Shown here one piece after another: positions 26,100-46,072 of a stretch of DNA of 64,000 nucleotides. Position 1 is the first letter of the stretch. Each line of letters opens with the position of its first letter. A model generated the notes under the pieces. It saw only the letters and a program-made list of their open reading frames with translations. It was not told where the DNA came from and did no database searches. A program made the translations under genes and the position numbers. The DNA comes from a virus (taxonomy: Duplodnaviria > Heunggongvirae > Uroviricota > Caudoviricetes), in IMG/VR virus record IMGVR_UViG_3300048930_000918, one strand, 5' to 3'.

Positions 26100-28472
26100 T
26101 TATCCTCCAAATTTGCTTCTTAATTTTTCCATTTCAATTTTAGCCTCAAGCAGTGCTTTCTCTTTCTCAAGTTTAAGTTTCTGCTTGGTCTCTTCAAAGT
26201 GCAACTGTGCTTTAAAGCTATCTGCTTCTAACTGATCATCTGCAATTTGTTTTCTAATTAAGCTTTCCTCTCTCTTCTGTTCAATTTCAGCTTTAATTAA
26301 CTCATTAGGGTCAAGTTGTTTATCCTCATCAACATTATTACCAAGCCCAAGAGCTGTTATTGCTTCAGCAGCTCTTAGTGCTAACATGTCTTGGGCTTCT
26401 TTGTCATTAGGATCAACCTGACTTAAATCTATACCCATTTCATTTTGCATCTGGAGCATGAACTTAAGTGCCATATGCTCCTGTATATGTGCGGCCGACG
26501 CTTCATTATCAACACCAGAGTGCACAACAATATGAGCATCATGATTCTGCTCGATACCTGCTCTTACGGGTTTACCCTGCATCAAGTCCATATTCTCGGT
26601 TATAGGATCACGAGGCTCAACTTCCTGTTGCTCACCCTGCGCAAGTAAACTTTCTATCTCATCCTGAGGTAATCCTTGCGCCTTGAATATCATTTTAATA
26701 GCTTCAACAGCGTTTACCTTATCAGGTAACTGCATCGCTGTTTGAAATACTGCCTCCGCTTTCATCACCCGTTCAATAGTAGAGTTAATAGAAGGGTCCG
26801 ATACCGGTACTAACTGAACGGAATCAACATAATGATCTCTTGTGATAATATATTCCTCGCCGTTAACAAAAAACTCTTCACGATCTATTACCTCCTTGAA
26901 TATCTCATCAAGAAGTCTTAGCTCCTGAGAAAATGAATTATGAATGGATTTTTGAACTTTAGACTGTATCTTGTTCTTCTCTTGCAGAAACGCAATAGCC
27001 GTACCTGTCGGGATATCTTCTCTTGAGTCCATCATCCCAAGTTCACTAGTAGATAACTGATCTTGCATCTGACCTATTATCTCCTGTCTTAGCTGCATCA
27101 AAGCCTGAGACGGCCCGTTCGCAGGAAGAGGTGCAAACATCTGTCTTATATCTCCTGCGCTATCTAGAAACCTCCATTGACCCGCACCAAGAGTTATATC
27201 AGTTATCTGCTGCTTGCTTGTTCCTTTCTGAATAAAACCAGCTGGTAAATTCTGATAGGTCGCTGCATCAATAGTCTGTCTTAACATGTTGGTAACTGTT
27301 ATCGCTCCGTTACCTGCCATTCTGGCCAATCCTTGGCCCCATATATCAAACCCAGTGTAATACTGGTATGCAACGAAAAACTTACGTCTCTTAAACTCTT
27401 TATCGTTTTCTTTCCAGTTACGCTCTATCCTTAGTATCTCTCTGCTTTCCTTATCTATGGTAACTATATAAGGTTTGGCCACCTCTGTTATTTCATCGGA
27501 ATTATAGGTATCATCAAACGTCTCAAGGTTTAAATAGATATGAGACTCATAAACATCATGGAGTGAACGCTGTGTATAAACATCAAGATCAATAACGCTG
27601 TTGGATGTTTTGGTTTCTTCCTCACTATCGTTATAGCTGTTATCGTTCTCATTTGCTCCAACCTTTAAATAAGGTAGTTCAACATCACGGTATATTTTGT
27701 TCTTCTGATTAAGTAATACTTCACGAGCAGATAGCTTTAAAATATGTGTTAGTCTATCTGAGTCGAGAATCGAACTACAATCTATATTGACAAGGAAGTT
27801 CTCAGGTAAGATAAACCTTGATAAAGGCATTTTAAGAATATTATCGTAATAAACCTTACGAATGATTGTGCCGTAAAAACCCAAGTAATATATAAACTTC
27901 TCATAGTCCTTATAATATTCTGAGTCCTTAACTGTTAGATAATAATTAAGCCACTGACTCCTTACTTTAGATATATATTCTAACTCTTCCGTTTCCTGTC
28001 CGAATATTTTAAACCCAGCTGGCCCACTTTCAGGTAACATTTCAGCTACAGTCGTTGCGCAGAAACGAATCACAGCTGTCGACAATGTGCTATCAACAGT
28101 ACGACAAGCTTGTGAGAAAGGTATACTGGTTAAATCTTCACCATCGTAACCAGTATATTTTTTAAGCTTATTATGAAGATCTAGCCAAGGTTGTCTTGCT
28201 TCTATATCCTCATCAATGGCTTCAAGTACAAACTCAGCAAGCTTCTTAAGCGTGCCGTCTTTCATATTAACGGCAAGGTTTGAATGAAACTTACTGTCCT
28301 TTGGTTTATCTTGATCAGGGTCGCCTATTTCATAAACACTTGATCCGTCTTCAAGATCGTTAACTTTATTAATAACATCCAAGTTAACATTGGGATCAAT
28401 TGCTGCTAGTTCGTTATCAAGAGTTGATTGCCTGCTAGTTCTGTTAAGCCGTAGCCTTTCTTTATTTTTCAT
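26100..28472 (-). CDS. portal protein candidate (790 aa) with C-terminal coiled-coil
   Basis: ORF track. Large protein immediately downstream of TerL. Long C-terminal helical/coiled-coil tail, as in P22-type portals. Confidence 0.6.
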   Translation of the reverse strand: MKNKERLRLNRTSRQSTLDNELAAIDPNVNLDVINKVNDLEDGSSVYEIGDPDQDKPKDSKFHSNLAVNMKDGTLKKLAEFVLEAIDEDIEARQPWLDLHNKLKKYTGYDGEDLTSIPFSQACRTVDSTLSTAVIRFCATTVAEMLPESGPAGFKIFGQETEELEYISKVRSQWLNYYLTVKDSEYYKDYEKFIYYLGFYGTIIRKVYYDNILKMPLSRFILPENFLVNIDCSSILDSDRLTHILKLSAREVLLNQKNKIYRDVELPYLKVGANENDNSYNDSEEETKTSNSVIDLDVYTQRSLHDVYESHIYLNLETFDDTYNSDEITEVAKPYIVTIDKESREILRIERNWKENDKEFKRRKFFVAYQYYTGFDIWGQGLARMAGNGAITVTNMLRQTIDAATYQNLPAGFIQKGTSKQQITDITLGAGQWRFLDSAGDIRQMFAPLPANGPSQALMQLRQEIIGQMQDQLSTSELGMMDSREDIPTGTAIAFLQEKNKIQSKVQKSIHNSFSQELRLLDEIFKEVIDREEFFVNGEEYIITRDHYVDSVQLVPVSDPSINSTIERVMKAEAVFQTAMQLPDKVNAVEAIKMIFKAQGLPQDEIESLLAQGEQQEVEPRDPITENMDLMQGKPVRAGIEQNHDAHIVVHSGVDNEASAAHIQEHMALKFMLQMQNEMGIDLSQVDPNDKEAQDMLALRAAEAITALGLGNNVDEDKQLDPNELIKAEIEQKREESLIRKQIADDQLEADSFKAQLHFEETKQKLKLEKEKALLEAKIEMEKLRSKFGG

Positions 28473-28614: not shown

Positions 28615-30159
28615 TTATCTATACCATGCTTGTGTTTCTTCTCCTATATCATCAGGCTCATAATAGTCTTTAGGATTCTTAATACTGCTACCGTCTCTAA
28701 GTACTATCAATGCTTGTGTTAACGTGTCAGTATAGTCCAAACTCCTTGGATTTGGAAAGTAACTGACTTCGTTAACAAATTCATCTGCAAAGTCTTCCAT
28801 CCTATCAGGATTATTAACTTGGGCTGGCATCCATACAACACCAGCTTCAATAAGAGGAGTTATCAACCTAACACGCTGGGTTTTATCACCATGCTTGTTA
28901 GGGATGAATGGAAAACCATTAACCCCAGCCCTTCTTAAATCCTGCAACAACGGCTCACCAGACGCCTTTGCTTCTATTACAATCTTATCTGGCTTCTTAT
29001 ATATTAATCTTTTATTAACTACTTCGCCGACATCCATATAATTATCAGCAAGCCTTTTAATCCTTTCCCTTAGTTCTGGATATTCAAGCCTGCCACGCCA
29101 GCAGGATAATAATATCACATTTGTATTATCGTATCCATCTTGAAATAATCCCCACGTGCTACAAGCAGAGTAAGCACTATCATCATTAGCAGTAAGGGCA
29201 GTATCCCAGCTTTGAATTACATAATCTATTTGAGGTAATCCCCACTTGAATAGCTTAAACCAATGCTTCTTAATAATACCCCCCTCAAGCGGTGCTGGTC
29301 TTTGTTGGTAAAGAGCAGCGTATCCATAAGAGCCTAGTTCTTTCTTAAGCTTCTTAACATCATCAAGCGTTAATCTTTTAGTAAGTAATTCACCATCCTT
29401 TGTTCGTTTATCTTCCCAAGGTTTCCCACGTGTCCAGTACAAGGGAACAGTGGGACGTTTGCTCTCTGGCTCATATTCTAAAGGTAGTATCAGCTTGACC
29501 CATTCATTATTAATGTCGTTAGCAATTACGCAGCCAGATACATCTTTCTCATCACCTCTTTGCTGTACAAGTACTCGCCTATCATTAGGCAAATCGTTAA
29601 GCCTGTTATACCACTTCATCGACCACCAGTTGTTAATACTATCTCTTACAACCTCTGATTCACCTCCTACTACGTTTGGATCATCTGTGAGTTGAATAGA
29701 ACCCCCTTTGCCGATAACAGATGAGCCGACAGAAGTTGATATACGATAACCTAGTTTGTCATTAGCAAAATAACTCTTTGAGTTCTGATCATCTCTTATC
29801 TTGAACAGATTCCCCCAGTTCTCCTGATACCAGTTACTTTGTATTAGAAGTCTGCTCTTATCCGCAATGTCTAATGATAAAGAGTTGGTACATGATGCGC
29901 TTATTATCTTCTCTGTTGGGTCTTTAATCCAAACCCATGCAGGGAACGCAATGCTTATTAAATTTGTTTTACCAAGACGAGGAGGTATGTTTATTAATAA
30001 ATTCTTAATCTCTCTCTTATACACAAGCTCCAGGTGCTCAGCTATAACCTCCAAAAACCATTCATCTACAAACTTGCTATGCCCTTCAATAATTGGCCAT
30101 GCTTGTATGAAGAATGAATATAAACTCTGCTCTGCTCTTTCCTTAAGTGTGAAGATCAT
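28615..30159 (-). CDS. terminase large subunit (514 aa)
   Basis: ORF track. Walker A-like PPRLGKT. C-terminal RNaseH-like nuclease signature (IQSWDTALTANDDSAYSACSTWG). Confidence 0.85.
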   Translation of the reverse strand: MIFTLKERAEQSLYSFFIQAWPIIEGHSKFVDEWFLEVIAEHLELVYKREIKNLLINIPPRLGKTNLISIAFPAWVWIKDPTEKIISASCTNSLSLDIADKSRLLIQSNWYQENWGNLFKIRDDQNSKSYFANDKLGYRISTSVGSSVIGKGGSIQLTDDPNVVGGESEVVRDSINNWWSMKWYNRLNDLPNDRRVLVQQRGDEKDVSGCVIANDINNEWVKLILPLEYEPESKRPTVPLYWTRGKPWEDKRTKDGELLTKRLTLDDVKKLKKELGSYGYAALYQQRPAPLEGGIIKKHWFKLFKWGLPQIDYVIQSWDTALTANDDSAYSACSTWGLFQDGYDNTNVILLSCWRGRLEYPELRERIKRLADNYMDVGEVVNKRLIYKKPDKIVIEAKASGEPLLQDLRRAGVNGFPFIPNKHGDKTQRVRLITPLIEAGVVWMPAQVNNPDRMEDFADEFVNEVSYFPNPRSLDYTDTLTQALIVLRDGSSIKNPKDYYEPDDIGEETQAWYR

Positions 30160-30179
30160 ATAGTTACAGTTAATATATA

Positions 30180-30398
30180 CTACCTCCAGTGTTGTGATAC
30201 ATAACCATGCTTAACCATGTTGTTAAGTTTTTCTATTATATCTTTATCTCTTCTTTGCTGCATAGATTCTTTAAACTTAAAGAAAGCCTCATCATTTATA
30301 ATAAATACCCGCCTTTCTTTAGCGTTGTATTCGTCATATTCTCTATCTAAAAAGTTTACTGTCTCAACCTCTGTATGTATCCTAGTTATTTTAATCAT
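30180..30398 (-). CDS. hypothetical small protein (72 aa)
   Basis: ORF track. Confidence 0.4.
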   Translation of the reverse strand: MIKITRIHTEVETVNFLDREYDEYNAKERRVFIINDEAFFKFKESMQQRRDKDIIEKLNNMVKHGYVSQHWR

Positions 30399-30747
30399 TA
30401 TTCTTTTTAAGTTCTAACTTGGACACAGTATATTTTATCCTTTCATTAGTATTTATTTGGTTAATTAATTGTTGTTTTAAATCTTCAATCCTATAAACAT
30501 CTATATCTTCAATAAGCTTACATATATGATCAACCATTATATTTATCATATCTAAATTATTCGTTTTATTTAAACGATTCTTTAAAATATCAAAACTTAT
30601 ATTTAACCAATCTCTTTTACTATTAAAATAATTAACCTTTTCTTCTTCAGTCATTTTTCTTTTATTAGCAACATCACCTAAACCTAAACCTATAAATATA
30701 TTTTCACCTCCAGTAATGTGTTTTATTTCTTCTTTTTTTGTTTCCAT
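30391..30747 (-). CDS. hypothetical protein (118 aa)
   Basis: ORF track. Confidence 0.4.
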   Translation of the reverse strand: METKKEEIKHITGGENIFIGLGLGDVANKRKMTEEEKVNYFNSKRDWLNISFDILKNRLNKTNNLDMINIMVDHICKLIEDIDVYRIEDLKQQLINQINTNERIKYTVSKLELKKNND

Positions 30748-30753
30748 ATAGTA

Positions 30754-31281
30754 TTACTCATTTTTAATTAATTTAGTTTCTTCCACCACAAAATCAGCAT
30801 CAATTGCCGTCTCACTATCCATACCAAACCCCATGTCTCTACGATATTTATCATAAAGTTTAATATCTATCTCTTTTTGTCTTCTCTGGTTGTCTGTTAA
30901 TGTGTTAATATTAACATTAACCTCAGGTTGATCATGATTCTCTTTCCACCTACCTTGAGTTTTGAGATAGAACACTATAGCACCAGTGTCAGCCTCAGGT
31001 GCTAAGCCCATTGCTTTATCGTGTAATTTCTGCGCAAACCTATATAACTTCTCGGATTTAGCCTTTTTATATACCTCGGCAATCCTTTGATCACGAGCTA
31101 ATAATTTATAAAAAGTTTCCTGATTAATCTTAAAGTAATCTGCTATTTGTAAATAGTTTAAATAAGGTGCTATTTCTGCTAATTGTTCTAGTTGTTCTTC
31201 TGTAAAAACTATCGGAGGTCTCCCGCCTAAATCTACTTCTTTCTTTTCTGACCCCGTAACATTTTTCAGCTTTTTAGACAT
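30754..31281 (-). CDS. terminase small subunit-like protein (175 aa); paralog of 46465..47082
   Basis: ORF track. Lies two genes upstream of TerL. Shares blocks with 46465..47082 (IADYFKINQETFYKLL vs IAGYFGIFKNTFYKIL; FYLKTQGRWKE vs FYLKAFAGWKD; IDIKLYDKYRRDMGF vs LDVKLYSKFCRENGF). Confidence 0.45.
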   Translation of the reverse strand: MSKKLKNVTGSEKKEVDLGGRPPIVFTEEQLEQLAEIAPYLNYLQIADYFKINQETFYKLLARDQRIAEVYKKAKSEKLYRFAQKLHDKAMGLAPEADTGAIVFYLKTQGRWKENHDQPEVNVNINTLTDNQRRQKEIDIKLYDKYRRDMGFGMDSETAIDADFVVEETKLIKNE

Positions 31282-31296
31282 TAACTTCTCTATTCA

Positions 31297-31599
31297 TCAA
31301 TTCTTTAAATACAAATAATCAAATTCATCATTATTATAACAAAATAGTCTATTTTCACTACATACAACCCAGTCACCTAATTTTAATATATGTTGGTTAT
31401 TGCCGTAACGATGTATGCTATCTTTATATAATGCACAAACCACTATTACGTCATTACCCTCATGTAATTTAATCATATTGTCATGAATATATAACTTTAA
31501 CCAGTCTGGATATTCACTAAATCTATCCTCTAGTTTTTTAACATTATCAACATATTGTACAGCTTCCGCTTTACTAAATTTATATTCACACATTGTCAT
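31297..31599 (-). CDS. hypothetical protein (100 aa)
   Basis: ORF track. First gene of the late operon. Confidence 0.4.
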   Translation of the reverse strand: MTMCEYKFSKAEAVQYVDNVKKLEDRFSEYPDWLKLYIHDNMIKLHEGNDVIVVCALYKDSIHRYGNNQHILKLGDWVVCSENRLFCYNNDEFDYLYLKN

Positions 31600-32169
31600 T
31601 TTGTCTTACTCCCTATTTTATCATCATAAGTAGGTTTATTTATAAATTTATCACTTAAATAAGCTATTAATCCCTTCATCTTTATTTCTTCCTTAAATAA
31701 TAGTCTATCATTTCATTTAAACAATTAGTAACTAACCAACTTTCTATATTTAAATCAACATTATTTTTTAAATTCATCGGATCAGCCCAAGGGAATGTCT
31801 TATACATCCAATCGTAACACATAATACTACTATGTTGATTTAAATATTTAATAACTTTTAATCCGAATTGTTTATTAGTAAGTAAAATTTTTTATATATT
31901 TATCTAATTTCTTATAAACTTTTTCATAATCATATGTAGTAAAACTCTCTTCGCCCATATCTTCAAATGTAATTTCCAATTCTTTCCTAGAGTTCATCTA
32001 ATTTCTCAACTATTTGTTTAAAACCAATTAATCCTAAATGATACACATATACTATAAACACCACCAATACTAAATGTTTTGCAGTCAGCAAACTATATAT
32101 CTCATTAGCAGGAAATAATGCCATGATGCAAAACATGTTGATGCTTAAATATATTAGATGGTTCATTCT

Positions 32170-32607
32170 CTAAAATATTTCTTCACCTCTGTTTATATTA
32201 TAATCAACCCTAATAGGTTTTTCATCTTCTATATCGTCAAAAACATCTGACTGTAAGCCAACACTCTTTATATAATTACCAAGGATGTATCTTATTTGAC
32301 CGTTAACTGACCTTGCTTCATTTTTAGCAAATCCGCATATTAGTTCATAGTCATGCTTACCGAGTCTTAAAGTAATAGGAATCAATAGATCTTTATTATC
32401 TTCTATACTATTAGTTGCATTAACGTTATCACTTTCTTTTTGGATAAAAGCAGATTCAAAATTTGTATTCTCATTAATCCATTTACCCGCAATCATCCTA
32501 TAATGGCTATTAATAGGTCGCGCTTCTTTGTGTGCAATGTCACTAATAATATTATGGTCCTCTTGATCAATCCTTAAATTTATAATTACTGTTTTCTTTT
32601 TGCTCAT
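32170..32607 (-). CDS. hypothetical protein (145 aa)
   Basis: ORF track. Isolated gene at the edge of the control region. Confidence 0.4.
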   Translation of the reverse strand: MSKKKTVIINLRIDQEDHNIISDIAHKEARPINSHYRMIAGKWINENTNFESAFIQKESDNVNATNSIEDNKDLLIPITLRLGKHDYELICGFAKNEARSVNGQIRYILGNYIKSVGLQSDVFDDIEDEKPIRVDYNINRGEEIF

Positions 32608-33028
32608 AAAAATATAACAACTTACTTATATTAAACAATATATTATAACAAAATTTATTTGTCAATACTGAATATACATAAATAATGTAGTTTTTTGTAT
32701 TAGATAATATATACATAAATATCAACATTAAAAACCTATAAAATTTATGTTTATAATTAAATATTGTTCTTTATAAACTACTAAACCCTTCAAATAATAA
32801 CAAATAACTAATATTTAAATACATATTGGATCATTACAAATATTATATTTTGTTATATTTTGTTATATTTTATTATATATATAAATAACTCTTAAGTACT
32901 ACAAATAACAACAATTAATATACTACTATAAAACTACATTTTATAGTAGTATAAATACATATAATTAATGTGAATTGATATTTATTGCTGTTTATTGCTG
33001 TTAAATGATTATATATAAATATACAAGA

Positions 33029-33306
33029 GATCGGCGATCGGCGACCCAATTATATACAAGATCGGCGACCATTCAAACCTTTATGTTTATTATCATTGGA
33101 GGTTCTTGGTGCCGAAATCGCCGATCTTTTTCCTATTGTAGACCAAATGAAAATATATTATTTTAAAATTTAAAATTTAAAATTTCTATCAGCTCCCATA
33201 TAAGAATACTTCGGCGACTTCAGCACTTATATACTTAAATAATAATAAATATAAGGGATTAAAGTATCGCCGATCTAAGTCGCCGAAGTATCGCCGATCG
33301 CCGATC
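33029..33306. promoter_or_regulatory. GC-rich motif cluster (GATCGGCGA / TCGCCGATC, at least 8 copies) bounded by a perfect 16-bp inverted repeat, with short AT tandem repeats inside
   Basis: GATCGGCGATCGGCGA at 33029..33044, and its exact reverse complement TCGCCGATCGCCGATC at 33291..33306. Further copies at 33060..33068, 33118..33126, 33211..33218, 33267..33275 and 33280..33286. TAAAATTT x3 at 33161..33186. The region lies in the 1.17-kb non-coding stretch between the divergent late and early operons. Confidence 0.5.
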
Positions 33307-33543
33307 TAGTAAAAATATTCCATTGGTATTATAAAAACCCACAATAAACACTGCTTCCTAAAACAACCAAACCCTCTAATTTCTCATTTAAACCTAGTTT
33401 TTAGCATCATATTCACATACTTAGCTACCATACTATATTAAATAGACATTCACGCTTATAAACCCTATTAAAACACGATTTCAAACAGCTGTTACCTTAA
33501 CAACACACATTTAATATTTGTAATAAAAAATAATTTTTAGTTA

Positions 33544-33572
33544 TTGACAAGTTAACAACATGCGGTTATATT
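33544..33572 (+). promoter_or_regulatory. sigma70-like promoter candidate for the plus-strand early operon
   Basis: TTGACA (33544..33549), 17-nt spacer, TATATT (33567..33572). About 200 nt upstream of the first plus-strand gene. Confidence 0.4.
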
Positions 33573-33777
33573 CAGCTTACGAGCAACTGTTAATTGAAAC
33601 AAAAAAATGAGTGATGAAAAACAATATAATAATATTTTAAAGTTAATTAGGATATCTTTAGTTCTTTATATGAGATGCCTTATGTTAATGAAACTATTTA
33701 TTATAAAAGAAGAAAACTAAAACATAAATTGGCATATAGAATAGATGCTTTGATAACAAGATGGGAGGTAAAAAAAA

Positions 33778-33960
33778 ATGAATATAATTGAAGCGATAAA
33801 AGCAGCAAAGAATGGTAATAAGGTATATAGGGATATAAAGATAGATGAGAAACTTACATTTAGATCATGGATTCCTTTTGTTGATCTGGAGCAGGAAAAG
33901 TTTACATTATCAGATATATTAGCTGATGATTGGGAAGTAAGTGAGTATAAAAATGACTGA
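33778..33960 (+). CDS. small protein (60 aa); paralog of the C-terminal half of 37658..38308
   Basis: ORF track. MNIIEAIK...DDWEVSEY compared with MNIIECIK...SDWEVSRVE at 37976. Confidence 0.4.
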   Translation: MNIIEAIKAAKNGNKVYRDIKIDEKLTFRSWIPFVDLEQEKFTLSDILADDWEVSEYKND

Positions 33961-34097
33961 TAACAATAAAAAACAATGGGAAAATGAGGCTAACAGATAT
34001 CACATTACTGATGATGAAATACAGGTTGTAAATATAAAAACAAATGAGATTGTTTTTAGTAGTAAACATGATGATTGATAAAAAAAGAGGACTGAAA

Positions 34098-34220
34098 ATG
34101 ACAGAACTTGAAAATAAAATTGTAGAACTGGTAACTGATAACTGGCGGGATAAGGAAGTAGAGACCAACCTTACAAAATTGCGTCTGATGTTAAAACAAT
34201 ATTACGGAGCAAGGAAATGA
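34098..34220 (+). CDS. small protein (40 aa)
   Basis: Not in the ORF track. Junction motif AAAAAAGAGGACTGAAA-ATG. Its stop overlaps the next start (ATGA). Confidence 0.3.
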   Translation: MTELENKIVELVTDNWRDKEVETNLTKLRLMLKQYYGARK

Positions 34221-34468
34221 TAAAATATGAAAAAGGCAGGAATAAGAAAATAACTATCTCAATATTAGCTGATCATAAATTCAAGTTAAGGAAAACCAAT
34301 CTTGATATGGATGAGGTTTTATATCTCTTAACGATCAATCTGGCTAGTCTTATAGTTGCTGAAAATATAAATGTAAACTCGAATAAAATAAATAACCTTA
34401 TAGATGATCTTAAACGTAGTCTCGAGTGGTATACTATGAGGAAAAGTAGCAGAGGAGTAAATTTATGA
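34217..34468 (+). CDS. hypothetical small protein (83 aa)
   Basis: ORF track. Confidence 0.35.
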   Translation: MIKYEKGRNKKITISILADHKFKLRKTNLDMDEVLYLLTINLASLIVAENINVNSNKINNLIDDLKRSLEWYTMRKSSRGVNL

Positions 34469-34755
34469 GAAACTTTATAACAGCGGCAATAATTGTAATT
34501 CTTCCGATTATGGCGTTTGCAGATACGATGAGTGAGATAAATAAGCTTATGGATAGGATCAAGTCCAATAGTAAGGCATACAGGGTTATCTGTTATTTAG
34601 ACAGGAGACTTACTAAAGGTTTTTCACTTGGTATGTTTGATATAGATAACAAAGAAGAATACTGCTTGTTTCTTAAAGAAGAGATAGTAAAGGAAATTGT
34701 TAAAAAGATTTGTGAAGATGTAAAGGTTAATATCAGTATAGATACTAGCGTTTAA
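34465..34755 (+). CDS. small exported protein with signal-peptide-like N-terminus (96 aa)
   Basis: ORF track. N-terminus MRNFITAAIIVILPIMAFADT. Confidence 0.4.
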   Translation: MRNFITAAIIVILPIMAFADTMSEINKLMDRIKSNSKAYRVICYLDRRLTKGFSLGMFDIDNKEEYCLFLKEEIVKEIVKKICEDVKVNISIDTSV

Positions 34756-34790
34756 TATTAATTTAATATTAATTTAATATTAATTTAATA
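34752..34790. repeat. 12-bp tandem repeat (AATATTAATTTA x3) in the XRE promoter region
   Basis: Seen directly between the stop of 34465..34755 and the start of the XRE gene. Confidence 0.6.
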
Positions 34791-34804
34791 AGAGGACATT
34801 AAAA

Positions 34805-35167
34805 ATGGCAAGACAAAGTGAGTTTATAAAAAACATAGATAAACATGTAGGTTCAAAGATACATGACTTTAGAATAGAAAAAGGATTAAGCCGTCAGATG
34901 TTAGCTAAAAATGTCGGTATTACGCACCAGCAATTAGCTAAATATGAACATGGTGTTAATAGAATATCAGTAGGTAGACTGCTTTTGATATGTAAAGAAC
35001 TAAATAAACCGATAACTTCTTTTATTGAGGAATATAATATTAATAGTGCGAATATCGTACTTGCTAAAGAACGTCTAACAATAGAGTTGGTTAGATCATT
35101 CAATAGTATTAAGGATGAGAAAATAAAAGAAGCAATAAACAATCTTGCGAAAGTAATGAGTAAATAA
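34805..35167 (+). CDS. XRE-family helix-turn-helix transcriptional regulator (120 aa)
   Basis: ORF track. HTH core LSRQMLAKNVGITHQQLAKYEHGVNRISVGRL. Confidence 0.7.
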   Translation: MARQSEFIKNIDKHVGSKIHDFRIEKGLSRQMLAKNVGITHQQLAKYEHGVNRISVGRLLLICKELNKPITSFIEEYNINSANIVLAKERLTIELVRSFNSIKDEKIKEAINNLAKVMSK

Positions 35168-35186
35168 TTAAAAAAGGATTAAAATT

Positions 35187-36041
35187 ATGACATATCAAGA
35201 AAAATCAACTTTTAAATTTATACTAATACTATCTTCAGTATTGATGCTGTTTATATTATTTTTAATGTCTGTAAACAGAATATCACCTGGACAAGTTGGT
35301 GTAATTGTCAACTTACTTGGTAATGAAAAAGGGGTTGAACCTGACACAATGGGTGTAGGTATAAACTTTACCGCCCCTTGGAAAAACGTATATGTATTCC
35401 CTACTTATGATCAGAATCATGTTTGGGAAGATATAAAGTTCCAGACGCAGGAGGGCTTACAGGTATCATCCAATATAGGTGTTACGTTTTCTTTAGAAGG
35501 CGATAAAATACCTGTTCTTTTTGCTAAATATAGAAAAGGGATAGAAGAAATCACTGATATATTTATTAAAAACAATGTTCGTGATGCTATTAATGTTGTT
35601 GCTTCAAAAATGAAAGTTGAAGACTTGTATGGTGAGAAAAAAGAAGAATTTTTTTATAATGTCAAAAAGATTTTATCTGAGGAATTGATACAAATAGGCT
35701 TTAATATCCATAAAGTATATATCATTGGTAATTTTGATGTTCCCTCACTTGTTACAGAAGCGTTAAATCGTAAAATTGAAGCTATACAAAGAGCTGAACA
35801 AAGAGAAAATGAACTTAGGGAAGCTGAAGCAGAAGCTAAAAAACAGATAGCGAAGGCTAAAGGTGAAGCACAAAGTAAAATTGTAGCTGCAACAGCTGAA
35901 GCAGAAGCTAATGAGAAACTGTCTAAATCCATCACTAAAAAATTGATACAGTTAAAATTTTTAGAAAAATGGAACGGCATATTACCTAAAGTCAGTTCAA
36001 ATAATGACTTTATTCTGGATTTAAAATCAATGGAGGATTAA
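35187..36041 (+). CDS. SPFH/band-7 (prohibitin/HflC-like) membrane protein (284 aa)
   Basis: ORF track. N-terminal TM anchor, SPFH core, and a C-terminal Ala/Glu/Lys coiled-coil (AEAEAKKQIAKAKGEAQSKIVAATAEAEANEKL). Confidence 0.7.
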   Translation: MTYQEKSTFKFILILSSVLMLFILFLMSVNRISPGQVGVIVNLLGNEKGVEPDTMGVGINFTAPWKNVYVFPTYDQNHVWEDIKFQTQEGLQVSSNIGVTFSLEGDKIPVLFAKYRKGIEEITDIFIKNNVRDAINVVASKMKVEDLYGEKKEEFFYNVKKILSEELIQIGFNIHKVYIIGNFDVPSLVTEALNRKIEAIQRAEQRENELREAEAEAKKQIAKAKGEAQSKIVAATAEAEANEKLSKSITKKLIQLKFLEKWNGILPKVSSNNDFILDLKSMED

Positions 36042-36145
36042 AAACATGAACGATATTGAAATGGTAATTTTAATCCAGAGCGTACCACTTGTTATTGGTA
36101 TAATAGGGATAATCATAATGGTTATAAAAGAATTCAGGGATTAAT

Positions 36146-36406
36146 ATGAATAATGATTATGAAGAGGATCAATATAGGTATGCAGTAGCTATGTTTTTGA
36201 GAGCACAATACTCAAACAAGGATATTTTAGAAAAGAAAATAACACCTGAAACTTTGCTTGTAAAAATAAAAAATCAATTCCCTGAGTATAATGATGATAA
36301 GTTACTATTAAAACTTTTAAGGGAAGTATTATACACAGTATTGGTTGAATTAAAGAATATTAGTAAAAAGGACATGAGTAAATATATAGATAGGAGGTTT
36401 AAATGA
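36146..36406 (+). CDS. hypothetical small protein (86 aa)
   Basis: ORF track. Confidence 0.4.
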   Translation: MNNDYEEDQYRYAVAMFLRAQYSNKDILEKKITPETLLVKIKNQFPEYNDDKLLLKLLREVLYTVLVELKNISKKDMSKYIDRRFK

Positions 36407-36666
36407 GCAATAAGGAATTATTAAAGGATTTAGCCAAGATAGCTGAGAAAAACGGCATGAAGAGAATACTTGTTATTAGTGATAAAGGTATTGCATATGA
36501 AAACGTTACTAATGAAACACTTAATGACCTTATGTTAGGTGTTAATTATGTCATGTACGGCATGGTCGGTGATAACAAACTTAATGTTGATCACATACCA
36601 GTTATATTTGAGGAATATGGTCGGATAGTTCAGGGTAATATTAAAAATGCCATTAAGCCATCTTAG
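36403..36666 (+). CDS. small protein (87 aa); paralog of 36864..37184
   Basis: ORF track. KRILVISDKGIAYENVTNETLNDLM compared with KTAILITDKGFLLHGIDYDEELVSELIF. Confidence 0.4.
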   Translation: MSNKELLKDLAKIAEKNGMKRILVISDKGIAYENVTNETLNDLMLGVNYVMYGMVGDNKLNVDHIPVIFEEYGRIVQGNIKNAIKPS

Positions 36667-36863
36667 CCTCTTGGCATGGGTCAGTATATTGCTGAAGTTT
36701 ATAAAGGAAAGTGAAAAACAATAATATAAAAGAGGATAAAATAGAAAACATTATGACTATAACACTATCATTAATACTTGGGTTAGTTGTTATGAAATAC
36801 CTTTCAAAGTGGGGAATTGTTGATAAAATTCACGACAAAATATTTAAACAATGAGGACTAAAA

Positions 36864-37184
36864 ATGAAAGATTTAGAAATTAATAAAGAAAAACTAATCA
36901 AGGAACTAAAAGAATTAGAAAATAATAAAGAAAAAGTAATTAAAGATTTAGAAAAATTTCTAATATCACATAATCTTAAAACAGCTATTTTGATTACAGA
37001 CAAAGGTTTTTTACTACACGGTATTGATTACGATGAAGAGTTAGTTAGCGAGCTTATTTTTACAGCTAATATTATATTAAATAGGCTTGTAAATCAAAAT
37101 AGACTCACAATAAAACAAGTGGGCGCTATGTTAGATACATATAAAGAATACATATTAAATTACGTTAAAGGTAATCATCATTGA
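36864..37184 (+). CDS. small protein (106 aa); paralog of 36403..36666
   Basis: ORF track. Preceded by the junction motif AATGAGGACTAAAA-ATG. Confidence 0.4.
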   Translation: MKDLEINKEKLIKELKELENNKEKVIKDLEKFLISHNLKTAILITDKGFLLHGIDYDEELVSELIFTANIILNRLVNQNRLTIKQVGAMLDTYKEYILNYVKGNHH

Positions 37185-37217
37185 ACTTGTATTATTAAAT
37201 AACAATGAGTAGTAAAA

Positions 37218-37463
37218 ATGAATAAAATAGAAAAACTTGTTAATAAATTAATCCCTTATATTTTTTTAATATTACTTTTAGTACTTAGTATTTTACTTAT
37301 AATTGGTACTTATAATGTTTTATTAGAAAATTCGTATATTTTTTATAATCCAATTACAAAAATAATGACTATAGGACTTTGTTTTATAGTTATATCCATT
37401 TGTTTATTGATGTTTTATATGGTTATTATAGATATTATAAAAGATAAGAAAAAGGAGGACTAA
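37218..37463 (+). CDS. small two-TM membrane protein (81 aa)
   Basis: ORF track. Ends ...KKKED with the stop embedded in the next gene's RBS (GAGGACTAA). Confidence 0.4.
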   Translation: MNKIEKLVNKLIPYIFLILLLVLSILLIIGTYNVLLENSYIFYNPITKIMTIGLCFIVISICLLMFYMVIIDIIKDKKKED

Positions 37464-37464
37464 A

Positions 37465-37656
37465 ATGCTACCATTACTTATAACACTGCTTTTAACAGCA
37501 CTTATTCTACACGCTATTATAAACGGCAATCATCATAGAACAGTTATAATACTGACATGCTGTATCATGATCTCACAATGTTTCAACTGGTATATTCAGG
37601 AAGAAAAAATACAAGCTCTAAAAGATAGAATAACAGAAATTGAGGTAAGTAAATAA
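37465..37656 (+). CDS. small membrane protein (63 aa)
   Basis: ORF track. Confidence 0.4.
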   Translation: MLPLLITLLLTALILHAIINGNHHRTVIILTCCIMISQCFNWYIQEEKIQALKDRITEIEVSK

Positions 37657-37657
37657 T

Positions 37658-38308
37658 ATGAATAGTATGTTTGAAAGTGTACAGTTTATTAATCCGTTAA
37701 TGAAGAAAAGTAAAAAATCCGTATTTTTGGCTTATAGTTATAAAGATTGTTTCTCTCATATTCCATATTGGTTGGAAGAACTTATTTATGATGGTGTAAT
37801 CGGTTTTAAACATAATAATGATATGGATGAAAAACTTGATTATTTAACATTAAATGGTTCAAAAATAAATTTATACGATTATATAGTTAAATATGACAAT
37901 AACGATAAAATATACATTAAAAAATTTAAACAAAGACAAAAAGAGAAAAATAACAACAAAAAAGGAGGACTAAAAATGAATATTATTGAATGTATAAAAC
38001 TTTTTATTGAGAAAGATATTAAAAAGTTTGAAAGAGGAAATAATACTAAAATTGATTTGAGTATTATTGATACATTTTACGATTATTCTTTTGAAAGTAT
38101 AGTTTCAGAGATAAAAGATATTGAAATAGAAGATTTTACTTCTTCCGATTGGGAAGTATCACGTGTTGAAATAGATGAGACAGAAGAAAAGATTATATTA
38201 GATTTAATTAAAGACCCTCTTAATGATGATCTAACAGTAGAAGAATTAAAAAAGATAGCAAGAGATACTTGTACTTTAAGAATGATTGAACAGGAGATAA
38301 TAGAGTAA
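37658..38308 (+). CDS. hypothetical protein (216 aa); probably two genes (37658..~37975 and 37976..38308) fused in-frame at a junction motif
   Basis: ORF track. An internal AAAAGGAGGACTAAAA-ATG at 37962..37978 is in-frame (read as KKGGLKM), so no stop separates the halves. The second half is paralogous to 33778..33960. Confidence 0.45.
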   Translation: MNSMFESVQFINPLMKKSKKSVFLAYSYKDCFSHIPYWLEELIYDGVIGFKHNNDMDEKLDYLTLNGSKINLYDYIVKYDNNDKIYIKKFKQRQKEKNNNKKGGLKMNIIECIKLFIEKDIKKFERGNNTKIDLSIIDTFYDYSFESIVSEIKDIEIEDFTSSDWEVSRVEIDETEEKIILDLIKDPLNDDLTVEELKKIARDTCTLRMIEQEIIE

Positions 38309-38334
38309 AAATAACATTAAAAAAAGAGGACTAA

Positions 38335-38508
38335 ATGAAAGCAAAAAGAATTGAAGTAGACGCTATAGACTATGATGGATTATGTACTAAGTGTGACTCA
38401 TATATAAACGAGCCTGTAATTATTAAGATAGGTAATAGTTTATATGAAAGTAACTTATGTAAACCTTGTATGAACAAAAATAATTTAACAGGGATTAATT
38501 CCGTATAG
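38335..38508 (+). CDS. small Zn-ribbon-like protein (57 aa)
   Basis: Not in the ORF track. Junction motif AAAAAGAGGACTAA-ATG. Has CxxC...CxxC (CTKCDS...CKPCMN). Confidence 0.4.
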   Translation: MKAKRIEVDAIDYDGLCTKCDSYINEPVIIKIGNSLYESNLCKPCMNKNNLTGINSV

Positions 38509-38530
38509 ACATTATAATATTGGAGGATGA

Positions 38531-38764
38531 ATGAAAAAATATAGAGGTAATACACAACAACCTGTTAATAAAAGCAGAAAATTTGTAACAGTTAGCTTGC
38601 CGTTAGATATTACTGATGTTTTAGAACGGATAGCTAAGGTAGAGAATATAACGAGAAGTTATCTAATAACAAATATACTTGATGAGTATGTTAAAAAATA
38701 CGATATGAAGTTATTAGAGCAAAGGGAATACGTAAAAGATAGTACTATGGATTTTAACAAATAA
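38531..38764 (+). CDS. ribbon-helix-helix (CopG/Arc-like) DNA-binding protein (77 aa)
   Basis: ORF track. RHH-like pattern (KFVTVSLPLDITDVLERIAKVENITRSYLITNILDEYV). Confidence 0.45.
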   Translation: MKKYRGNTQQPVNKSRKFVTVSLPLDITDVLERIAKVENITRSYLITNILDEYVKKYDMKLLEQREYVKDSTMDFNK

Positions 38765-38781
38765 ACAACAAGGAGGACAAA

Positions 38782-39273
38782 ATGAGCGGCAATACACCTA
38801 CAGAAAGAAAATATACTAAAATAAAGAACTTTACCGAGAAAGATCAAGTGAGAATTAAATATTCTCTTTTAGGTAAGGAAAAGAAACTTATGTTATCTGT
38901 TTACATCGGTGAAGATGTTTATAATCAACTAACAGAGGGAAAGGAGTATAAAAGACTTATAACAACATATATTCCCGGTGATATGTTGATTGTAACACCT
39001 ACTAACGATGAAAAGGAAGGGTTGATACACAGATATAATGGTAGCGGTAGATTTAAAACAACCTGTATTCGAATTAGCTTGGGTAGACTAAAGGATTTAA
39101 AATTAAGTAAAAGTGATTTTAAAAATAGAGTAGTTGAATATAACATGGTTTACGGAGGTATTGATGAACCATCCAACGCATTGAGGATTAATATTAGTAA
39201 CAGAAGAAAATCAGATTTACTGTTACAGATCAGAAAGAACAGGTATTTAATATTTATGAAGGTAGTAACTTAG
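38782..39273 (+). CDS. hypothetical protein (163 aa)
   Basis: ORF track. Preceded by the junction motif AACAAGGAGGACAAA-ATG. Confidence 0.4.
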   Translation: MSGNTPTERKYTKIKNFTEKDQVRIKYSLLGKEKKLMLSVYIGEDVYNQLTEGKEYKRLITTYIPGDMLIVTPTNDEKEGLIHRYNGSGRFKTTCIRISLGRLKDLKLSKSDFKNRVVEYNMVYGGIDEPSNALRINISNRRKSDLLLQIRKNRYLIFMKVVT

Positions 39274-39278
39274 GTTAT

Positions 39279-39608
39279 TTGGCTGAGCAATATGGTGAAA
39301 ATAATATTTATGAACAATTAAAACCAGGTTTAGCCGCATTACGCAATTCTCCTTGTTCTATTAAAGACAATATAGCTAAACAAAAAATAGAGGGTGCGCT
39401 AATACCTTATACTACTTTTAATGATTTGGATGAGATAAAAGAAAAAATTGATGAATTATTAAAAAATCAGGAAGCGTTAGCTGAATCAATGAGTCGTACA
39501 ATTGAACTTTTTAATACTGCATTAATTAAAGAAAAAGATGAATCTAAAATATTAAAAGTACATAGTTATAAAATTTTGTTTAAAAAAATATTCGGAGGAA
39601 GTAAATGA
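39279..39608 (+). CDS. hypothetical protein (109 aa)
   Basis: ORF track. Confidence 0.4.
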   Translation: MAEQYGENNIYEQLKPGLAALRNSPCSIKDNIAKQKIEGALIPYTTFNDLDEIKEKIDELLKNQEALAESMSRTIELFNTALIKEKDESKILKVHSYKILFKKIFGGSK

Positions 39609-40156
39609 CACAATACAAAATAAATTTTGAAAATTTATTAAAAACAAGATTCAAATATATGTTTCCTTATTTATCCAATATGGAAATTGATTATACTGAT
39701 GCACCATCTATTGACTATCCTAACGTTGAGAATGGTAATAGAACTGCATATGGTAAAACTTATCAAGCGACAATAAGAGATTTTAAAGGTAATACTGACA
39801 ATGATATGAGTATGTTTGAGCTTAATTATAATGACTTAATACATGTTAACGACGTATCAATTGTTAATGGTGATGTTAATTATCATATAGATGATGCTTT
39901 CTTGAAAATTTTTGAGGAAATGGAAAGAGATGCAATTATCGCTACCAAATTATATTTGGATTCTAATCATTTTGATTTGGTTGACGAAACAAAACATAAA
40001 AATAATCTATATATCAGAAAGGATTTTGAATATTTTACTTACTATGTTTATGACGCTTATGATACATATAATTTGGTTATTAGAGTTAGGCTTATAATGC
40101 GAAGAAAAGAAGATAAACAAGTTGATAGGTTTAGTATTGTAATTAACGATATATAA
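39605..40156 (+). CDS. hypothetical protein (183 aa)
   Basis: ORF track. Last gene before the terminator. Confidence 0.4.
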   Translation: MTQYKINFENLLKTRFKYMFPYLSNMEIDYTDAPSIDYPNVENGNRTAYGKTYQATIRDFKGNTDNDMSMFELNYNDLIHVNDVSIVNGDVNYHIDDAFLKIFEEMERDAIIATKLYLDSNHFDLVDETKHKNNLYIRKDFEYFTYYVYDAYDTYNLVIRVRLIMRRKEDKQVDRFSIVINDI

Positions 40157-40193
40157 TACTATAATAATTAACATCTTTTTTCTTAATAAAAAA

Positions 40194-40226
40194 CCTCTTA
40201 AGTTAATTCTTAAGAGGTTTTTTTTT
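40194..40226 (+). terminator. rho-independent terminator (bidirectional-capable)
   Basis: CCTCTTAAG-TTAATT-CTTAAGAGG has a perfect 9-bp stem, followed by TTTTTTTTT and preceded by an A-run. Confidence 0.65.
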
Positions 40227-40367
40227 ATTAACAATTTAAAAAAGAGGTTTCATATTAAACCTACATAAGCTAAAAAGCCTATCTCTTTTTATATATTATA
40301 AAGGAGGGAAAATGTATAGAGAAATTTATATGATAAAATCTATTAAATTTTGATAACTTTTCACACA

Positions 40368-40388
40368 TAATCCACAAAATTATCCACA
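40368..40388 (+). promoter_or_regulatory. two DnaA-box-like 9-mers (TAATCCACA and TTATCCACA) in direct orientation
   Basis: TTATCCACA at 40380..40388 matches the DnaA-box consensus exactly. TAATCCACA at 40368..40376 has 1 mismatch. They lie in the intergenic region upstream of the replication module. Confidence 0.3.
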
Positions 40389-40508
40389 AAGACATAATTT
40401 TTAAACTAAATTAATTAACAATTAATAACTAAATATATTTTTAACTTTTTTGTTTACTTATAATAATTATTAGTGTATAAGGTTGAAACTATTTATTTAA
40501 AGTAAGCT

Positions 40509-40691
40509 ATGAAAAGAATACTTATTGAAGTTGACGATGATCTAACAGAGTTGATTGATAAAGAGGCACGGGATAGTCAACGTACTAGGAAATCACAGGT
40601 AACTTTTATTGTTAAGAGTTATTACAAACAAGGTTTAGCTAAACTAGAAGAACGCAGGAATGCTTTAACGGAAGACACTTTTAGGTATTAA
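40509..40691 (+). CDS. ribbon-helix-helix (CopG/antitoxin-like) protein (60 aa)
   Basis: ORF track. MKRILIEVDDDLTELIDKEA is a typical RHH N-terminal strand plus helix. Confidence 0.5.
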   Translation: MKRILIEVDDDLTELIDKEARDSQRTRKSQVTFIVKSYYKQGLAKLEERRNALTEDTFRY

Positions 40692-40713
40692 CATTTAAGA
40701 GAGGACTAATTAA

Positions 40714-40935
40714 ATGAAAATCAATGATGCAATAAAATTTATCTATAATCATCGTTATAATATTATTACAAGAGAAAATAGCTATTATATGATCATTAAG
40801 ATACAGGATAAATTATTTAAGTACTATCAATCCTATAATAAACCAGGTACTACTTTTATAGATAAATTAGAGCCCTATTCATTGGTAAATGAGATGGAGG
40901 ATAGTGAGTGTAACGATTGGATAGTAATAAGGTAG
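40714..40935 (+). CDS. hypothetical small protein (73 aa)
   Basis: ORF track. Preceded by the junction motif AGAGAGGACTAATTAA-ATG. Confidence 0.35.
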   Translation: MKINDAIKFIYNHRYNIITRENSYYMIIKIQDKLFKYYQSYNKPGTTFIDKLEPYSLVNEMEDSECNDWIVIR

Positions 40936-40938
40936 ATT

Positions 40939-41130
40939 ATGCAAATAGTAGCACCTATGATAAATTTTCTTCTATGGATGCTTATATCTTATTTTATGTT
41001 ATATAGACAAAGAAAAAGATACGAAAAAATAATTGAAGGAATGCGTCTTGATTTTATCAAGAAACAGAATGATACTGATTTAAAAATGAGAATTGAATAT
41101 GGGCAGAAAAGAGAAGACAGAGACATTTAA
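40939..41130 (+). CDS. small membrane protein (63 aa)
   Basis: ORF track. Single TM (MINFLLWMLISYFMLY). Confidence 0.35.
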   Translation: MQIVAPMINFLLWMLISYFMLYRQRKRYEKIIEGMRLDFIKKQNDTDLKMRIEYGQKREDRDI

Positions 41131-41275
41131 ATTAAGGTTATTTGCAGCTTTTATAATTGCTGTATTATTAACGAGTGGTTACTTCATGTCTAAAAATCAA
41201 AAAGAAAGTAGCATGGATAATATTATTAGTTTAAAACTACATCACTAAACAATTTATTTACCTTAATTTATTTAA

Positions 41276-41402
41276 AACTTAACAATGAAAAAATACTGTA
41301 TCAGTTTTTTCAACAACTGCACTGATGTTATAGCAAAACAAGAGGAGTTAAGTTTTGAAGAGATTTTAAGCTACTTTAATAAAGTATTTACAAAACCTTT
41401 CA
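41276..41402 (+). repeat. left copy of a 127-bp (at least) perfect direct repeat covering the primase gene start; partner at 63874..64000
   Basis: Exact identity from 9 nt upstream of the ATG through 118 nt of coding sequence. The partner copy is cut off by the window end. Confidence 0.85.
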
Positions 41403-44611: not shown

Positions 44612-46072
44612 ATGGCAAAAATTATTCAACTACCTAAACGAGACGTTATTAAATCACTACTTGATGCAAATCACCAAGTAAGGGGAGGGGATAATAAAAA
44701 CTTTTTAGAAGAAGAGTATGTTTACCTCAATAACCGAGAAAACATATTAAAAAAACAAATAACAATCGTTCAATTATTATCCGATAATAATATAAAGCTG
44801 TTTGATGAAATAAAAAATATTGAATCAAATAAAATTAAAATACTCCCTTTAGCAGACAAAAGTAATGTTTTTTATAGTGCATTGAACTTTTTACCAAAAC
44901 CACCAAACGATAAAAACAATGTTCTTCCATTATTCGAAAAAGAAAAAGATAGATTACAATATATTAATAATCTAACCAATCAGGAATTACATAAACACTA
45001 TCAAGATCAGATCAATAATCTAAACTTGGAATTAAAATATATTCAAAACATTATTAAAACATTAAAAGAGAGTTCAAGTAATAACAATACACCTAAATTT
45101 AAAACCATACCTACATATAACGGACTCAATAACACACTAAGTAAAACTCAAAAAGAATTAATAGCACCTTTCTACAAAAAAGATAAAACCGAGAATGAAA
45201 GAAAAATTTTACAAGAAATACTGCTAAATCATGTTAAAAAAGATAATGACTTTACTAACGATCAGAAAATAGAAATTGCACAATATATAATAAACAAAGA
45301 ATATGACAAAGCCTTTGATAACTATTTGATGTTTCCTCTTACAAGAGATGAACAAAGAATATTAAGAGCTTTAAGAGAAGAAATGTATGAACAAATAAAG
45401 ATAGGAAAGATTACAGGAATGGGTCAAACTTCTTATGAAGCATATATATTGTACAATAAATTTTTTACTATCTATGGTGTAAGCAAAGACAACAAAACAA
45501 GAAAACCTATAAAAGACATCTTGTTCGGTCGTACAACAAAAGGACTTCATAAAAATATTCTTTTAGAGCATGAAAATCTAGTTACTACATCCTTAATTCT
45601 TCAGGTACAAGAAATAAAGGAGAAAACAAATCTATCTAAAGAAAATTTAGGTACTGGGTTTATAATTACAATGCCTTCCTTCCTTTTTGTAAACGAAGAC
45701 AAATTAAAAGCAAAGAACTATTATAATCAAGAGAATGAAGGTTATAGAAGATTTATGAAGACAGGGAGAATGGCTCAATCAGATGCAGCAACTAAGATAG
45801 CATGTAAATTAGAAGTACTATGCCATTGTACTATTAATAACAAAAAGAGAAAAGGTAAGAAAGTATTACTTGATTTAGAAACATTAGTCAAGATAGCTGG
45901 ATATGAAAGACGTTACCAACGTAAACCTAGCGAAACAATTAATAAGATTAAAATTATATTAGATAGTCTTGTTGAGGCTAATTATTTGATAGAGGAATGG
46001 TGTATTAAAGAAGGTAAATTTAGACAGAAACAATATATTTTTAAACCTTTAAAAATACCTCTTTCCCAGTAG
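44612..46072 (+). CDS. hypothetical 486-aa protein, candidate iteron-binding replication protein
   Basis: ORF track. No recognisable motif. Its last codons run directly into the 6x22-bp tandem array. Confidence 0.35.
   Translation: MAKIIQLPKRDVIKSLLDANHQVRGGDNKNFLEEEYVYLNNRENILKKQITIVQLLSDNNIKLFDEIKNIESNKIKILPLADKSNVFYSALNFLPKPPNDKNNVLPLFEKEKDRLQYINNLTNQELHKHYQDQINNLNLELKYIQNIIKTLKESSSNNNTPKFKTIPTYNGLNNTLSKTQKELIAPFYKKDKTENERKILQEILLNHVKKDNDFTNDQKIEIAQYIINKEYDKAFDNYLMFPLTRDEQRILRALREEMYEQIKIGKITGMGQTSYEAYILYNKFFTIYGVSKDNKTRKPIKDILFGRTTKGLHKNILLEHENLVTTSLILQVQEIKEKTNLSKENLGTGFIITMPSFLFVNEDKLKAKNYYNQENEGYRRFMKTGRMAQSDAATKIACKLEVLCHCTINNKKRKGKKVLLDLETLVKIAGYERRYQRKPSETINKIKIILDSLVEANYLIEEWCIKEGKFRQKQYIFKPLKIPLSQ

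Follow-up and report, generated by a model that had tools for sequence, protein, structure and literature searches.

The repeat island at positions 33028-33307 of the analysed sequence, a 64,000-nucleotide stretch of phage DNA referred to here as the window, is, judging from sequence comparison, a conserved element acting in cis, with sites that co-evolve with a protein. The preferred reading is that the island is the lytic replication origin of the phage, of the iteron type, and a probability of roughly one half is assigned to it. This reading is based on the symmetric array, the AT-rich core, a homologue of the SaPI Rep proteins encoded by the phage, and the confinement of the motif to the island. 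A first-pass annotation had listed five candidate roles for the island; the origin is the best supported of these with regard to architecture, the SaPI-Rep-like initiator and the conserved layout.

The island is located in a non-coding gap between the divergent late and early operons. The gap was measured as 1170 bp, from the start of the RHH gene at 32607 to the first early ORF at 33778, which agrees with the 1.17 kb given in the first-pass annotation. The GC content around the island is locally 24-29%. Two strong, near-consensus promoters diverge in this region, and the island lies between them in promoter-free DNA and overlaps neither. The cumulative GC skew has its minimum at the island, but genes also change orientation here, which confounds the signal. 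The flanking features are as follows; the leftward operon also contains small ORFs beside the RHH and TerS genes.

26100-28472, minus strand: portal gene, followed by head and tail genes
28615-30159, minus strand: TerL gene (514 aa), late-side operon
30754-31281, minus strand: TerS gene, late-side operon; the island starts about 1.75 kb upstream
32170-32607, minus strand: RHH protein gene, late-side operon
32637-32665, minus strand: sigma-70-like promoter TTGACA-17-TATATT, driving the leftward RHH-TerS-TerL-portal operon; 365 bp from the island
33544-33572, plus strand: sigma-70-like promoter TTGACA-17-TATATT, driving the rightward early operon; 237 bp from the island and conserved in relatives
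34805-35167, plus strand: XRE regulator gene, in the early operon with many small ORFs

On the two strands together, the 64 kb contain 12 copies of the heptamer TCGGCGA; dinucleotide-preserving shuffles contain 0.94 on average and at most 4. Nine of the 12 copies (TCGGCGA/TCGCCGA) fall inside 33031-33304, a segment of about 276-280 bp, so that the at least eight copies reported previously are in fact nine, with a strong enrichment over shuffled sequence. The site is 7-9 bp long and can be written (G)TCGCCGA(TC). Seven of the nine island copies are the exact 9-mer GATCGGCGA, and these seven contain GATC.

The copies are arranged in two convergent groups (>>> < AT > <<<<), with four copies on the left of the AT core and five on its right. 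The outer arms, 33028-33044 (AGATCGGCGATCGGCGA) and 33291-33307, form a perfect inverted repeat of 17 nt; the first-pass annotation had recognised it as perfect but had given its length as 16. A second perfect inverted repeat of 15 nt is formed by 33206-33220 and 33277-33291, and a longer, imperfect one of 66 nt (74%) by 33059-33124 and 33211-33276. With these three repeats, the whole island is roughly two-fold symmetric around a centre at about 33167 and amounts to a large imperfect palindrome. Around this centre about 45 bp (33145-33190) are almost pure A+T, with 2.5% GC in 40-bp windows, and contain the tandem repeat TTTAAAA (3.4 copies, 33162-33185). All of the AT tandem repeats described earlier were present, but the period of this central one is 7 and not 8. 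Folded as a single strand, the island is highly stable (z = -7.9); this follows from the inverted sites and is no argument for a role as RNA or as a cruciform. The parts of the island are listed from left to right.

33028-33044, plus strand: left outer arm, two abutting iterons GATCGGC GATCGGCGA with a 7-bp period; inverted-repeat partner 33291-33307
33060-33068, plus strand: iteron GATCGGCGA; mirror partner 33267-33275
33116-33126, minus strand: inverted iteron AATCGCCGATC, closing the left convergent unit
33145-33190, no strand: AT-rich core at the dyad centre, holding the TTTAAAA repeat; proposed DNA-unwinding element
33183-33190, plus strand: TTTCTATC box at the right-hand end of the AT core, found in five of 12 islands (window phage, L047, L007, L004 and L006)
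33209-33219, plus strand: iteron without GATC, CTTCGGCGACT, opening the right convergent unit; mirror partner 33116-33126
33250-33259, plus strand: TATAAGGGAT box inside the right unit, with an AAGGGAT core in eight of the 11 other islands
33265-33275, minus strand: iteron TATCGCCGATC
33279-33288, minus strand: iteron without GATC, GTCGCCGAAG
33289-33307, minus strand: right outer arm, two abutting iterons TATCGCCGATCGCCGATCT

About a dozen related virome and metagenome contigs were collected by searches with TerL, primase and XRE proteins (TerL 81-94% identical). Every contig spanning the region carried an island at the same place and with the same layout, which gave eleven related loci. The left half of the shared layout consists of forward sites, a spacer, inverted sites and the AT-rich centre; the right half consists of forward sites, a spacer with a TAAGGGAT-type box in most islands, and several inverted sites. 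The end of the AT centre carries the TTTCTATC box in the five islands listed above and variants of it in most others. Each relative's island holds 3-10 copies of its own motif, and in nearly all eleven the sites are split to both sides of an AT centre. Among the 12 loci compared, seven motif classes were found on this one scaffold:

TCGCCGA(TC): window phage and L047
GTAGCCGA(TC): L007
GGTAGCCGGTT: L005
TGGTAGTAGACC: L049 and L053
GGTAGTAA: L004, L006, L010 and L009
GACATATGCG: L011 and L028
TTATGACA: L038, a more distant relative

The closest pair of different motifs was the most informative. The islands of the window phage and L007 are about 80% identical, and all nine homologous sites differ in class by one base, TCGCCGA in the former and TAGCCGA-like in the latter. 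As far as the aligned sites indicate, nine independent drift events cannot explain this change, and the sites are too short and too dispersed for homogenisation by gene conversion. The concerted change of nine sites within spacers of about 80% identity points to one specific protein that reads the sites and co-evolves with them. In most relatives the motif contains no GATC.

In all genome stretches examined, the phage's own motif was confined to the island, and the array was present once per genome. Arrays of TCGGCGA were found in none of the dozen or so related contigs, apart from the twin contig L047, whose island is identical to that of the window. A search of viral contigs with the motif-array pattern gave no match. 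In 185,579 reference genomes the pattern retrieved 103 stretches, nearly all from GC-rich organisms, and the four that were inspected proved to be either unrelated simple repeats or dispersed copies of the motif. The objection that the motif might be a generic repeat, common throughout the genome, had been raised with the first description of the island and fails on this distribution, as the related phages show no genome-wide spread. A blastn search with 32600-33780 against 50,697 phage records gave no match, an Rfam scan returned sub-threshold chance hits only, and a TerL search of reference genomes revealed no relative.

The candidate initiator is a protein of 709-740 aa with PriCT-2 and VapE-like domains that is encoded by this phage family. 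It comprises an AEP-type primase, PriCT-2, a VapE/SF3 ATPase and a predicted C-terminal winged helix. The intact gene for a 709-aa form is present in the insertion-free twin (L047:11377-13506). In the window only the first 118 nt of the phage's own gene are found (63883-64000, plus strand), displaced by an insertion and running off the end of the window. The family profile matched Rep1 of SaPI1 (PDB 7PDS) with E = 3e-22. An AlphaFold model of the primase-helicase had a mean pLDDT of 85, and its best PDB matches in Foldseek were the six chains of 7PDS, with E values down to 2e-14 over about 450-470 columns. This alignment spans nearly the whole of Rep1, including the C-terminal domain; the next structural matches were the primase-helicases of ASFV and poxviruses. 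The end of the model, residues 668-716, forms a strand-helix-helix-hairpin unit, which is consistent with a winged helix. The replication module also includes an exonuclease, an SNF2 helicase, a Gp2.5-like SSB and a DNA polymerase of the phage itself, as in phages of the virulent type.

The primase-helicases were compared with the motif classes. Between the window phage and L007 the protein is 89% identical and the motif differs by one base; L004, L006 and L010 have a motif in common and primase-helicases of 95-98% identity. The wing sequence of the winged helix is distinct for each motif class. L049 and the L004 group have a common GGTAGTA core, though their primase-helicases are just 51% identical. 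For close pairs the substitutions were modestly enriched in the wing, with 6 of 15 residues (uncorrected P = 0.004) and 4 of 15 residues (P = 0.12), and the most divergent stretch of the protein lies outside the wing. The columns that group L049 with the L004 group against L005 numbered 21, hardly more than the 16 with the reverse pattern, and this column-wise comparison showed no signal. The primase-helicase sequences are compatible with the origin model, with a weak statistical signal for covariation with the motif, and for the closest pairs the tree agrees with the relatedness of the motifs. Four further contigs of complete size are outside these motif/helicase pairs, because their primase-anchored stretch ends a few hundred bases before the island. 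The island lies 7.7-11 kb upstream of the primase-helicase gene, and no motif cluster was found 3' of this gene.

The SaPI Reps are self-loading helicases of the SF3 clade and act also as initiators (PMC9371898). Their C-terminal winged helix recognises iterons of 5-6 bp, and the origin, located immediately downstream of rep, contains 6-12 iterons around an AT-rich centre with half of them on each side, at least two per side being in opposite directions (PMC9371898). Loading probably involves one Rep hexamer per side of the centre; in SaPI5, primase and Rep are fused in one protein (PMC9371898). Each Rep bound its own ori, with the origins of other SaPIs serving as negative controls (PMC9371898).

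The likeness of the island to these Staphylococcus aureus systems (PDB 7PDS, 7OLA) extends to several features. The nine short iterons are within the SaPI range of 6-12, and they are divided 4 + 5 about an AT centre and occur in opposite orientations on each side. The phage encodes an SF3-clade helicase homologous to Rep1, with a predicted C-terminal unit resembling a winged helix, and the motif differs between related phages; in the SaPIs it is the specificity of Rep that differs. However, the sites of the island are longer (7-9 bp compared with 5-6 bp), and the island does not directly follow the initiator gene but is situated 7.7-11 kb upstream of it, where the early and late promoters diverge. 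Furthermore, the island belongs to a virulent-type phage of roughly 56 kb with its own DNA polymerase and not to a satellite, and boxes other than iterons, TTTCTATC and TAAGGGAT, are conserved beside its iterons.

Other known origins share parts of this architecture. The ori and crr regions of phage P4 consist of octamer iterons in direct and inverted orientation beside an AT-rich stretch, and the P4 alpha protein is a fused primase-SF3 helicase whose C-terminal winged-helix domain reads the iterons. The island resembles these regions in its iterons of both orientations next to an AT stretch and in the fused primase-helicase as candidate initiator. P4, however, needs crr as a second cis region about 4.5 kb away, and a second motif cluster was looked for in the phage genomes and not found. 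The primase of P4 alpha is of the TOPRIM type, in contrast to the AEP/PriCT-2 type of the phage protein, and a sequence match of the primase-helicase to P4 alpha was not obtained. In lambdoid phages, different ori iterons are matched to different DNA-binding domains of the O protein, which is similar to the different iteron sequences of the related phages here; the initiator of lambda, however, is not a helicase. The origins of SV40 and other polyomaviruses and of papillomaviruses combine pentanucleotides or short inverted sites with an AT tract, at which two SF3 helicase hexamers, of large T antigen or E1, are loaded head to head. The inverted short sites of the island beside its AT tract are comparable, but these are eukaryotic viruses with an unrelated origin-binding domain and far fewer sites.

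By analogy with SaPI Rep, we infer that the primase-helicase is the binder of the island sites and that replication starts at the island. The fused protein would bind the sites with its C-terminal winged helix as the DNA-reading element. Two hexamers, one per side, would be loaded around the AT core and would then melt it, and bidirectional replication would start at the core, primed by the same protein. The specificity of origin and initiator would have diverged together with the motifs between relatives. If the island is an origin, the SaPI-type system of a self-loading SF3 helicase and a symmetric iteron origin would extend to virulent-type phages of about 56 kb that are known from metagenomes only. 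The seven iteron specificities on one scaffold would then be a natural series for site reading by winged helices, and the pair with nine sites differing by one base could reveal the way in which co-circulating phages come to differ in origin specificity. The island is also a defined cis element that could be used for building replicons or for typing uncultured phages.

The gene of the candidate initiator is interrupted in the window. The twin contig L047 (JGI Ga0498918_0002397, 56,335 bp) is 100% identical to window positions 29909-41634, 85% identical over 41635-42193 and unrelated beyond. The segment 41276-41402 of the window is repeated exactly at 63874-64000, and a contig of 78,933 bp, equal to 56,335 + 22,598, is recorded in a protein cluster. 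The break in identity, the repeat and this record together indicate an element of 22.6 kb inside the primase-helicase gene. It is inserted at a segment of 359 bp (41276-41634) that is identical in phage and element, with the second junction from 63874 onwards. The 797-aa ORF at 41285-43678 is a chimera, its first approximately 300 residues being primase-like and the rest DnaB-like. The following genes belong to the element:

41285-43678: primase-DnaB fusion
46465-47082: TerS-like gene
48671-49627: replication initiator
51054-54350: tail-fibre paralogues
61728-62330: ParA
62863-63822: tyrosine integrase, ending 52 nt before the repeat

The element resembles a satellite-like or plasmid-like element that targets the phage genome; alternatively, the insertion could be the product of an assembly walk through the shared repeat. 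Just upstream of the element's TerS-like gene there is a tandem duplication of 66 bp (46065-46194, 97% identical), which may be a cis site of the element itself.

Proteins other than the primase-helicase were also compared with the motif classes as possible readers of the sites. This comparison covered about two thirds of each relative's genome, and the binder could lie in the remaining part. The two types of N-terminal helix-turn-helix domain found in TerS, A and B, cut across the motif classes. L004 (type A) and L006 (type B) share a motif with N-domains that are 46% identical, and the N-domains of phages with the same motif are down to 43-46% identical. Conversely, L007 and L010 have different motifs and N-domains that are 94% identical, and the window phage and L004 have different motifs and nearly the same TerS recognition helix. 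The beta-strand types of the RHH protein likewise cut across the motif classes. The XRE protein has an invariant recognition helix throughout the phages, and the HTH_31 protein of 77 aa encoded in the replication module does not covary with the motif. A conserved early protein of 163-395 aa with a variable coiled-coil tail differs between L004 and L006 despite their common motif. None of the other early-proximal and late-proximal ORF families, within a few kb on each side, had the pattern expected from the motif classes.

The main alternative to an origin is a pac region, in which the repeats to either side would be recognised by a terminase subunit or accessory protein and cutting would occur in or near the AT centre. 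The island adjoins the operon containing TerS (30754-31281) and TerL (28615-30159), and this TerL is akin to the TerL proteins of T1-like phages and of Aaphi23. These are headful packagers, so the phage should need a pac site somewhere, and this keeps a packaging function alive. Repeats around a central AT segment also recall the pac site of P1, where a central site lies between four short GATC-containing repeats to one side and three to the other, within about 160-280 bp; the island has a similar size, and seven of its copies contain GATC. The pacL/pacC/pacR sites of SPP1 are another pac region of several parts. However, P1 pac is located inside pacA and is regulated by Dam methylation, and GATC has no place in the motif of most relatives. 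In P22, SPP1 and Sf6 the pac site is within or next to terS, but the island starts about 1.75 kb upstream of it. The type of the TerS DNA-binding domain, moreover, does not follow the motif. The ends of the contigs are assembly artefacts, for example k-mer overlaps of 127 bp. The pac/cos site suggested at first thus retains its position beside the terminase operon but not a TerS that tracks the motif, and a packaging function is considered unlikely.

It is also quite doubtful that the motif is read by some other fast-evolving DNA-binding protein, or by a terminase-independent packaging or identity factor, instead of the primase-helicase, so that the island would serve as an identity tag of the phage. 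This explanation is retained because all four recognisable DNA-binding proteins fail to covary with the motif and because the signal in the helicase is weak. If it were true, one-base switches would isolate close co-circulating phages from each other in replication or packaging, and also from satellites such as the inserted 22.6-kb element.

A regulatory array, acting as enhancer, silencer or insulator, appears improbable. Here a phage DNA-binding protein would coat the island and set the balance or timing of the divergent promoters. The position between two strong divergent promoters, the small regulators encoded on both sides and the concerted change of the motif, which indicates that a specific protein reads the island, would all suit such an array. 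But the island is 237 and 365 bp away from the -35 hexamers and does not overlap a promoter, and an AT core between convergent sites is an unusual layout for an operator. RHH, XRE and HTH_31 proteins do not covary with the motif, and no early-proximal or late-proximal protein has the expected pattern across the motif classes. The annotation had named RHH, XRE or ParG-like proteins as possible partners of an operator array. This proposal is not borne out by the beta-strand of the RHH protein or the helix of the XRE protein, and the partner resembling ParG drops out, since the ParA and 90-aa genes belong to the inserted foreign element.

Very little speaks for a centromere of the plasmid type (parS), or for an attP carrying arm-type sites, in a phage persisting as an episome or integrated prophage, and this is judged highly improbable. 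Type Ib centromeres and the arm sites of attP are short repeats in both orientations, as are those of the island over its approximately 280 bp, and the distant relative L035 encodes ParA and a ParB_N-methylase by its late operon. However, a search for a Walker A motif of the ParA type in about 300 kb of relatives' DNA was negative, and homologues of the element's integrase and ParA were absent from these 300 kb and from window positions 1-41275. The replication module is of the virulent type, and the sole integrase and ParA of the window belong to the 22.6-kb element, while the twin lacking this element has an identical island. The centromere proposed earlier is accordingly unlikely, neither ParA nor ParB having been found in the phage proper or its relatives. 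In L035 (TerL 62% identical), the region 6963-9568 contains genes for ParA, a 67-aa partner and a ParB_N-methyltransferase fusion beside the late operon; some members of the wider group may thus persist as plasmids.

Finally, a MITE-like mobile element with terminal inverted repeats or a captured generic host repeat, as the perfect 17-bp terminal repeat and the compact GC-rich island in AT-rich DNA might suggest, has a negligible probability, because the relatives carry a homologous scaffold at the same place with other motifs, L007 being positionally homologous at every copy, and because there is one copy per genome and the search of viral contigs for the array gave no match; the small mobile element of the first-pass annotation is thereby refuted.

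Several further observations were made in the region. The DNA between the late promoter and the island (32637-33002) is dense in AT-rich repeats, namely ATATACATAAATA (2 copies), TTATATTTTG (3.6 tandem copies at 32843-32878) and TTTATTGCTG (2.2 tandem copies at 32981-33002). A perfect palindrome of 15 bp is situated in the same interval, within 32919-32953. The repeats are candidate operators for the RHH protein. The RHH gene itself (32170-32607, minus strand) encodes 145 aa, in which two paralogous RHH domains are fused. Relatives have one or the other domain as a separate protein of 63-79 aa, and the fused form is also present in L005.

Between the island and the early promoter, the two non-coding blocks 33378-33406 (AATTTCTCATTTAAACCTAGTTTTTAGCA) and 33489-33507 (CTGTTACCTTAACAACACA) are nearly invariant in eight phages and are more conserved than the flanking genes. 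Covariation of base pairs, as expected for an RNA structure, was sought in these blocks and was not found. The blocks probably bind conserved factors, for example the XRE protein.

In the early region of the window, the adjacent ORFs 38782-39273 and 39279-39608 correspond to the N-terminal and C-terminal parts of a single protein of 277-395 aa in the relatives, so that the gene appears to be split in the window phage. In the complete protein, a variable middle part resembling a coiled coil separates the conserved N-domain from a KSLFEKIFG tail that is also conserved. The TerL of the window phage (514 aa) lacks the intein; in several relatives, TerL is interrupted by an intein with a LAGLIDADG endonuclease (L006:7189-9171, L007:4439-7108 and L031:2616-5210), and the intein-bearing TerL has a length of 864 aa in P0006.
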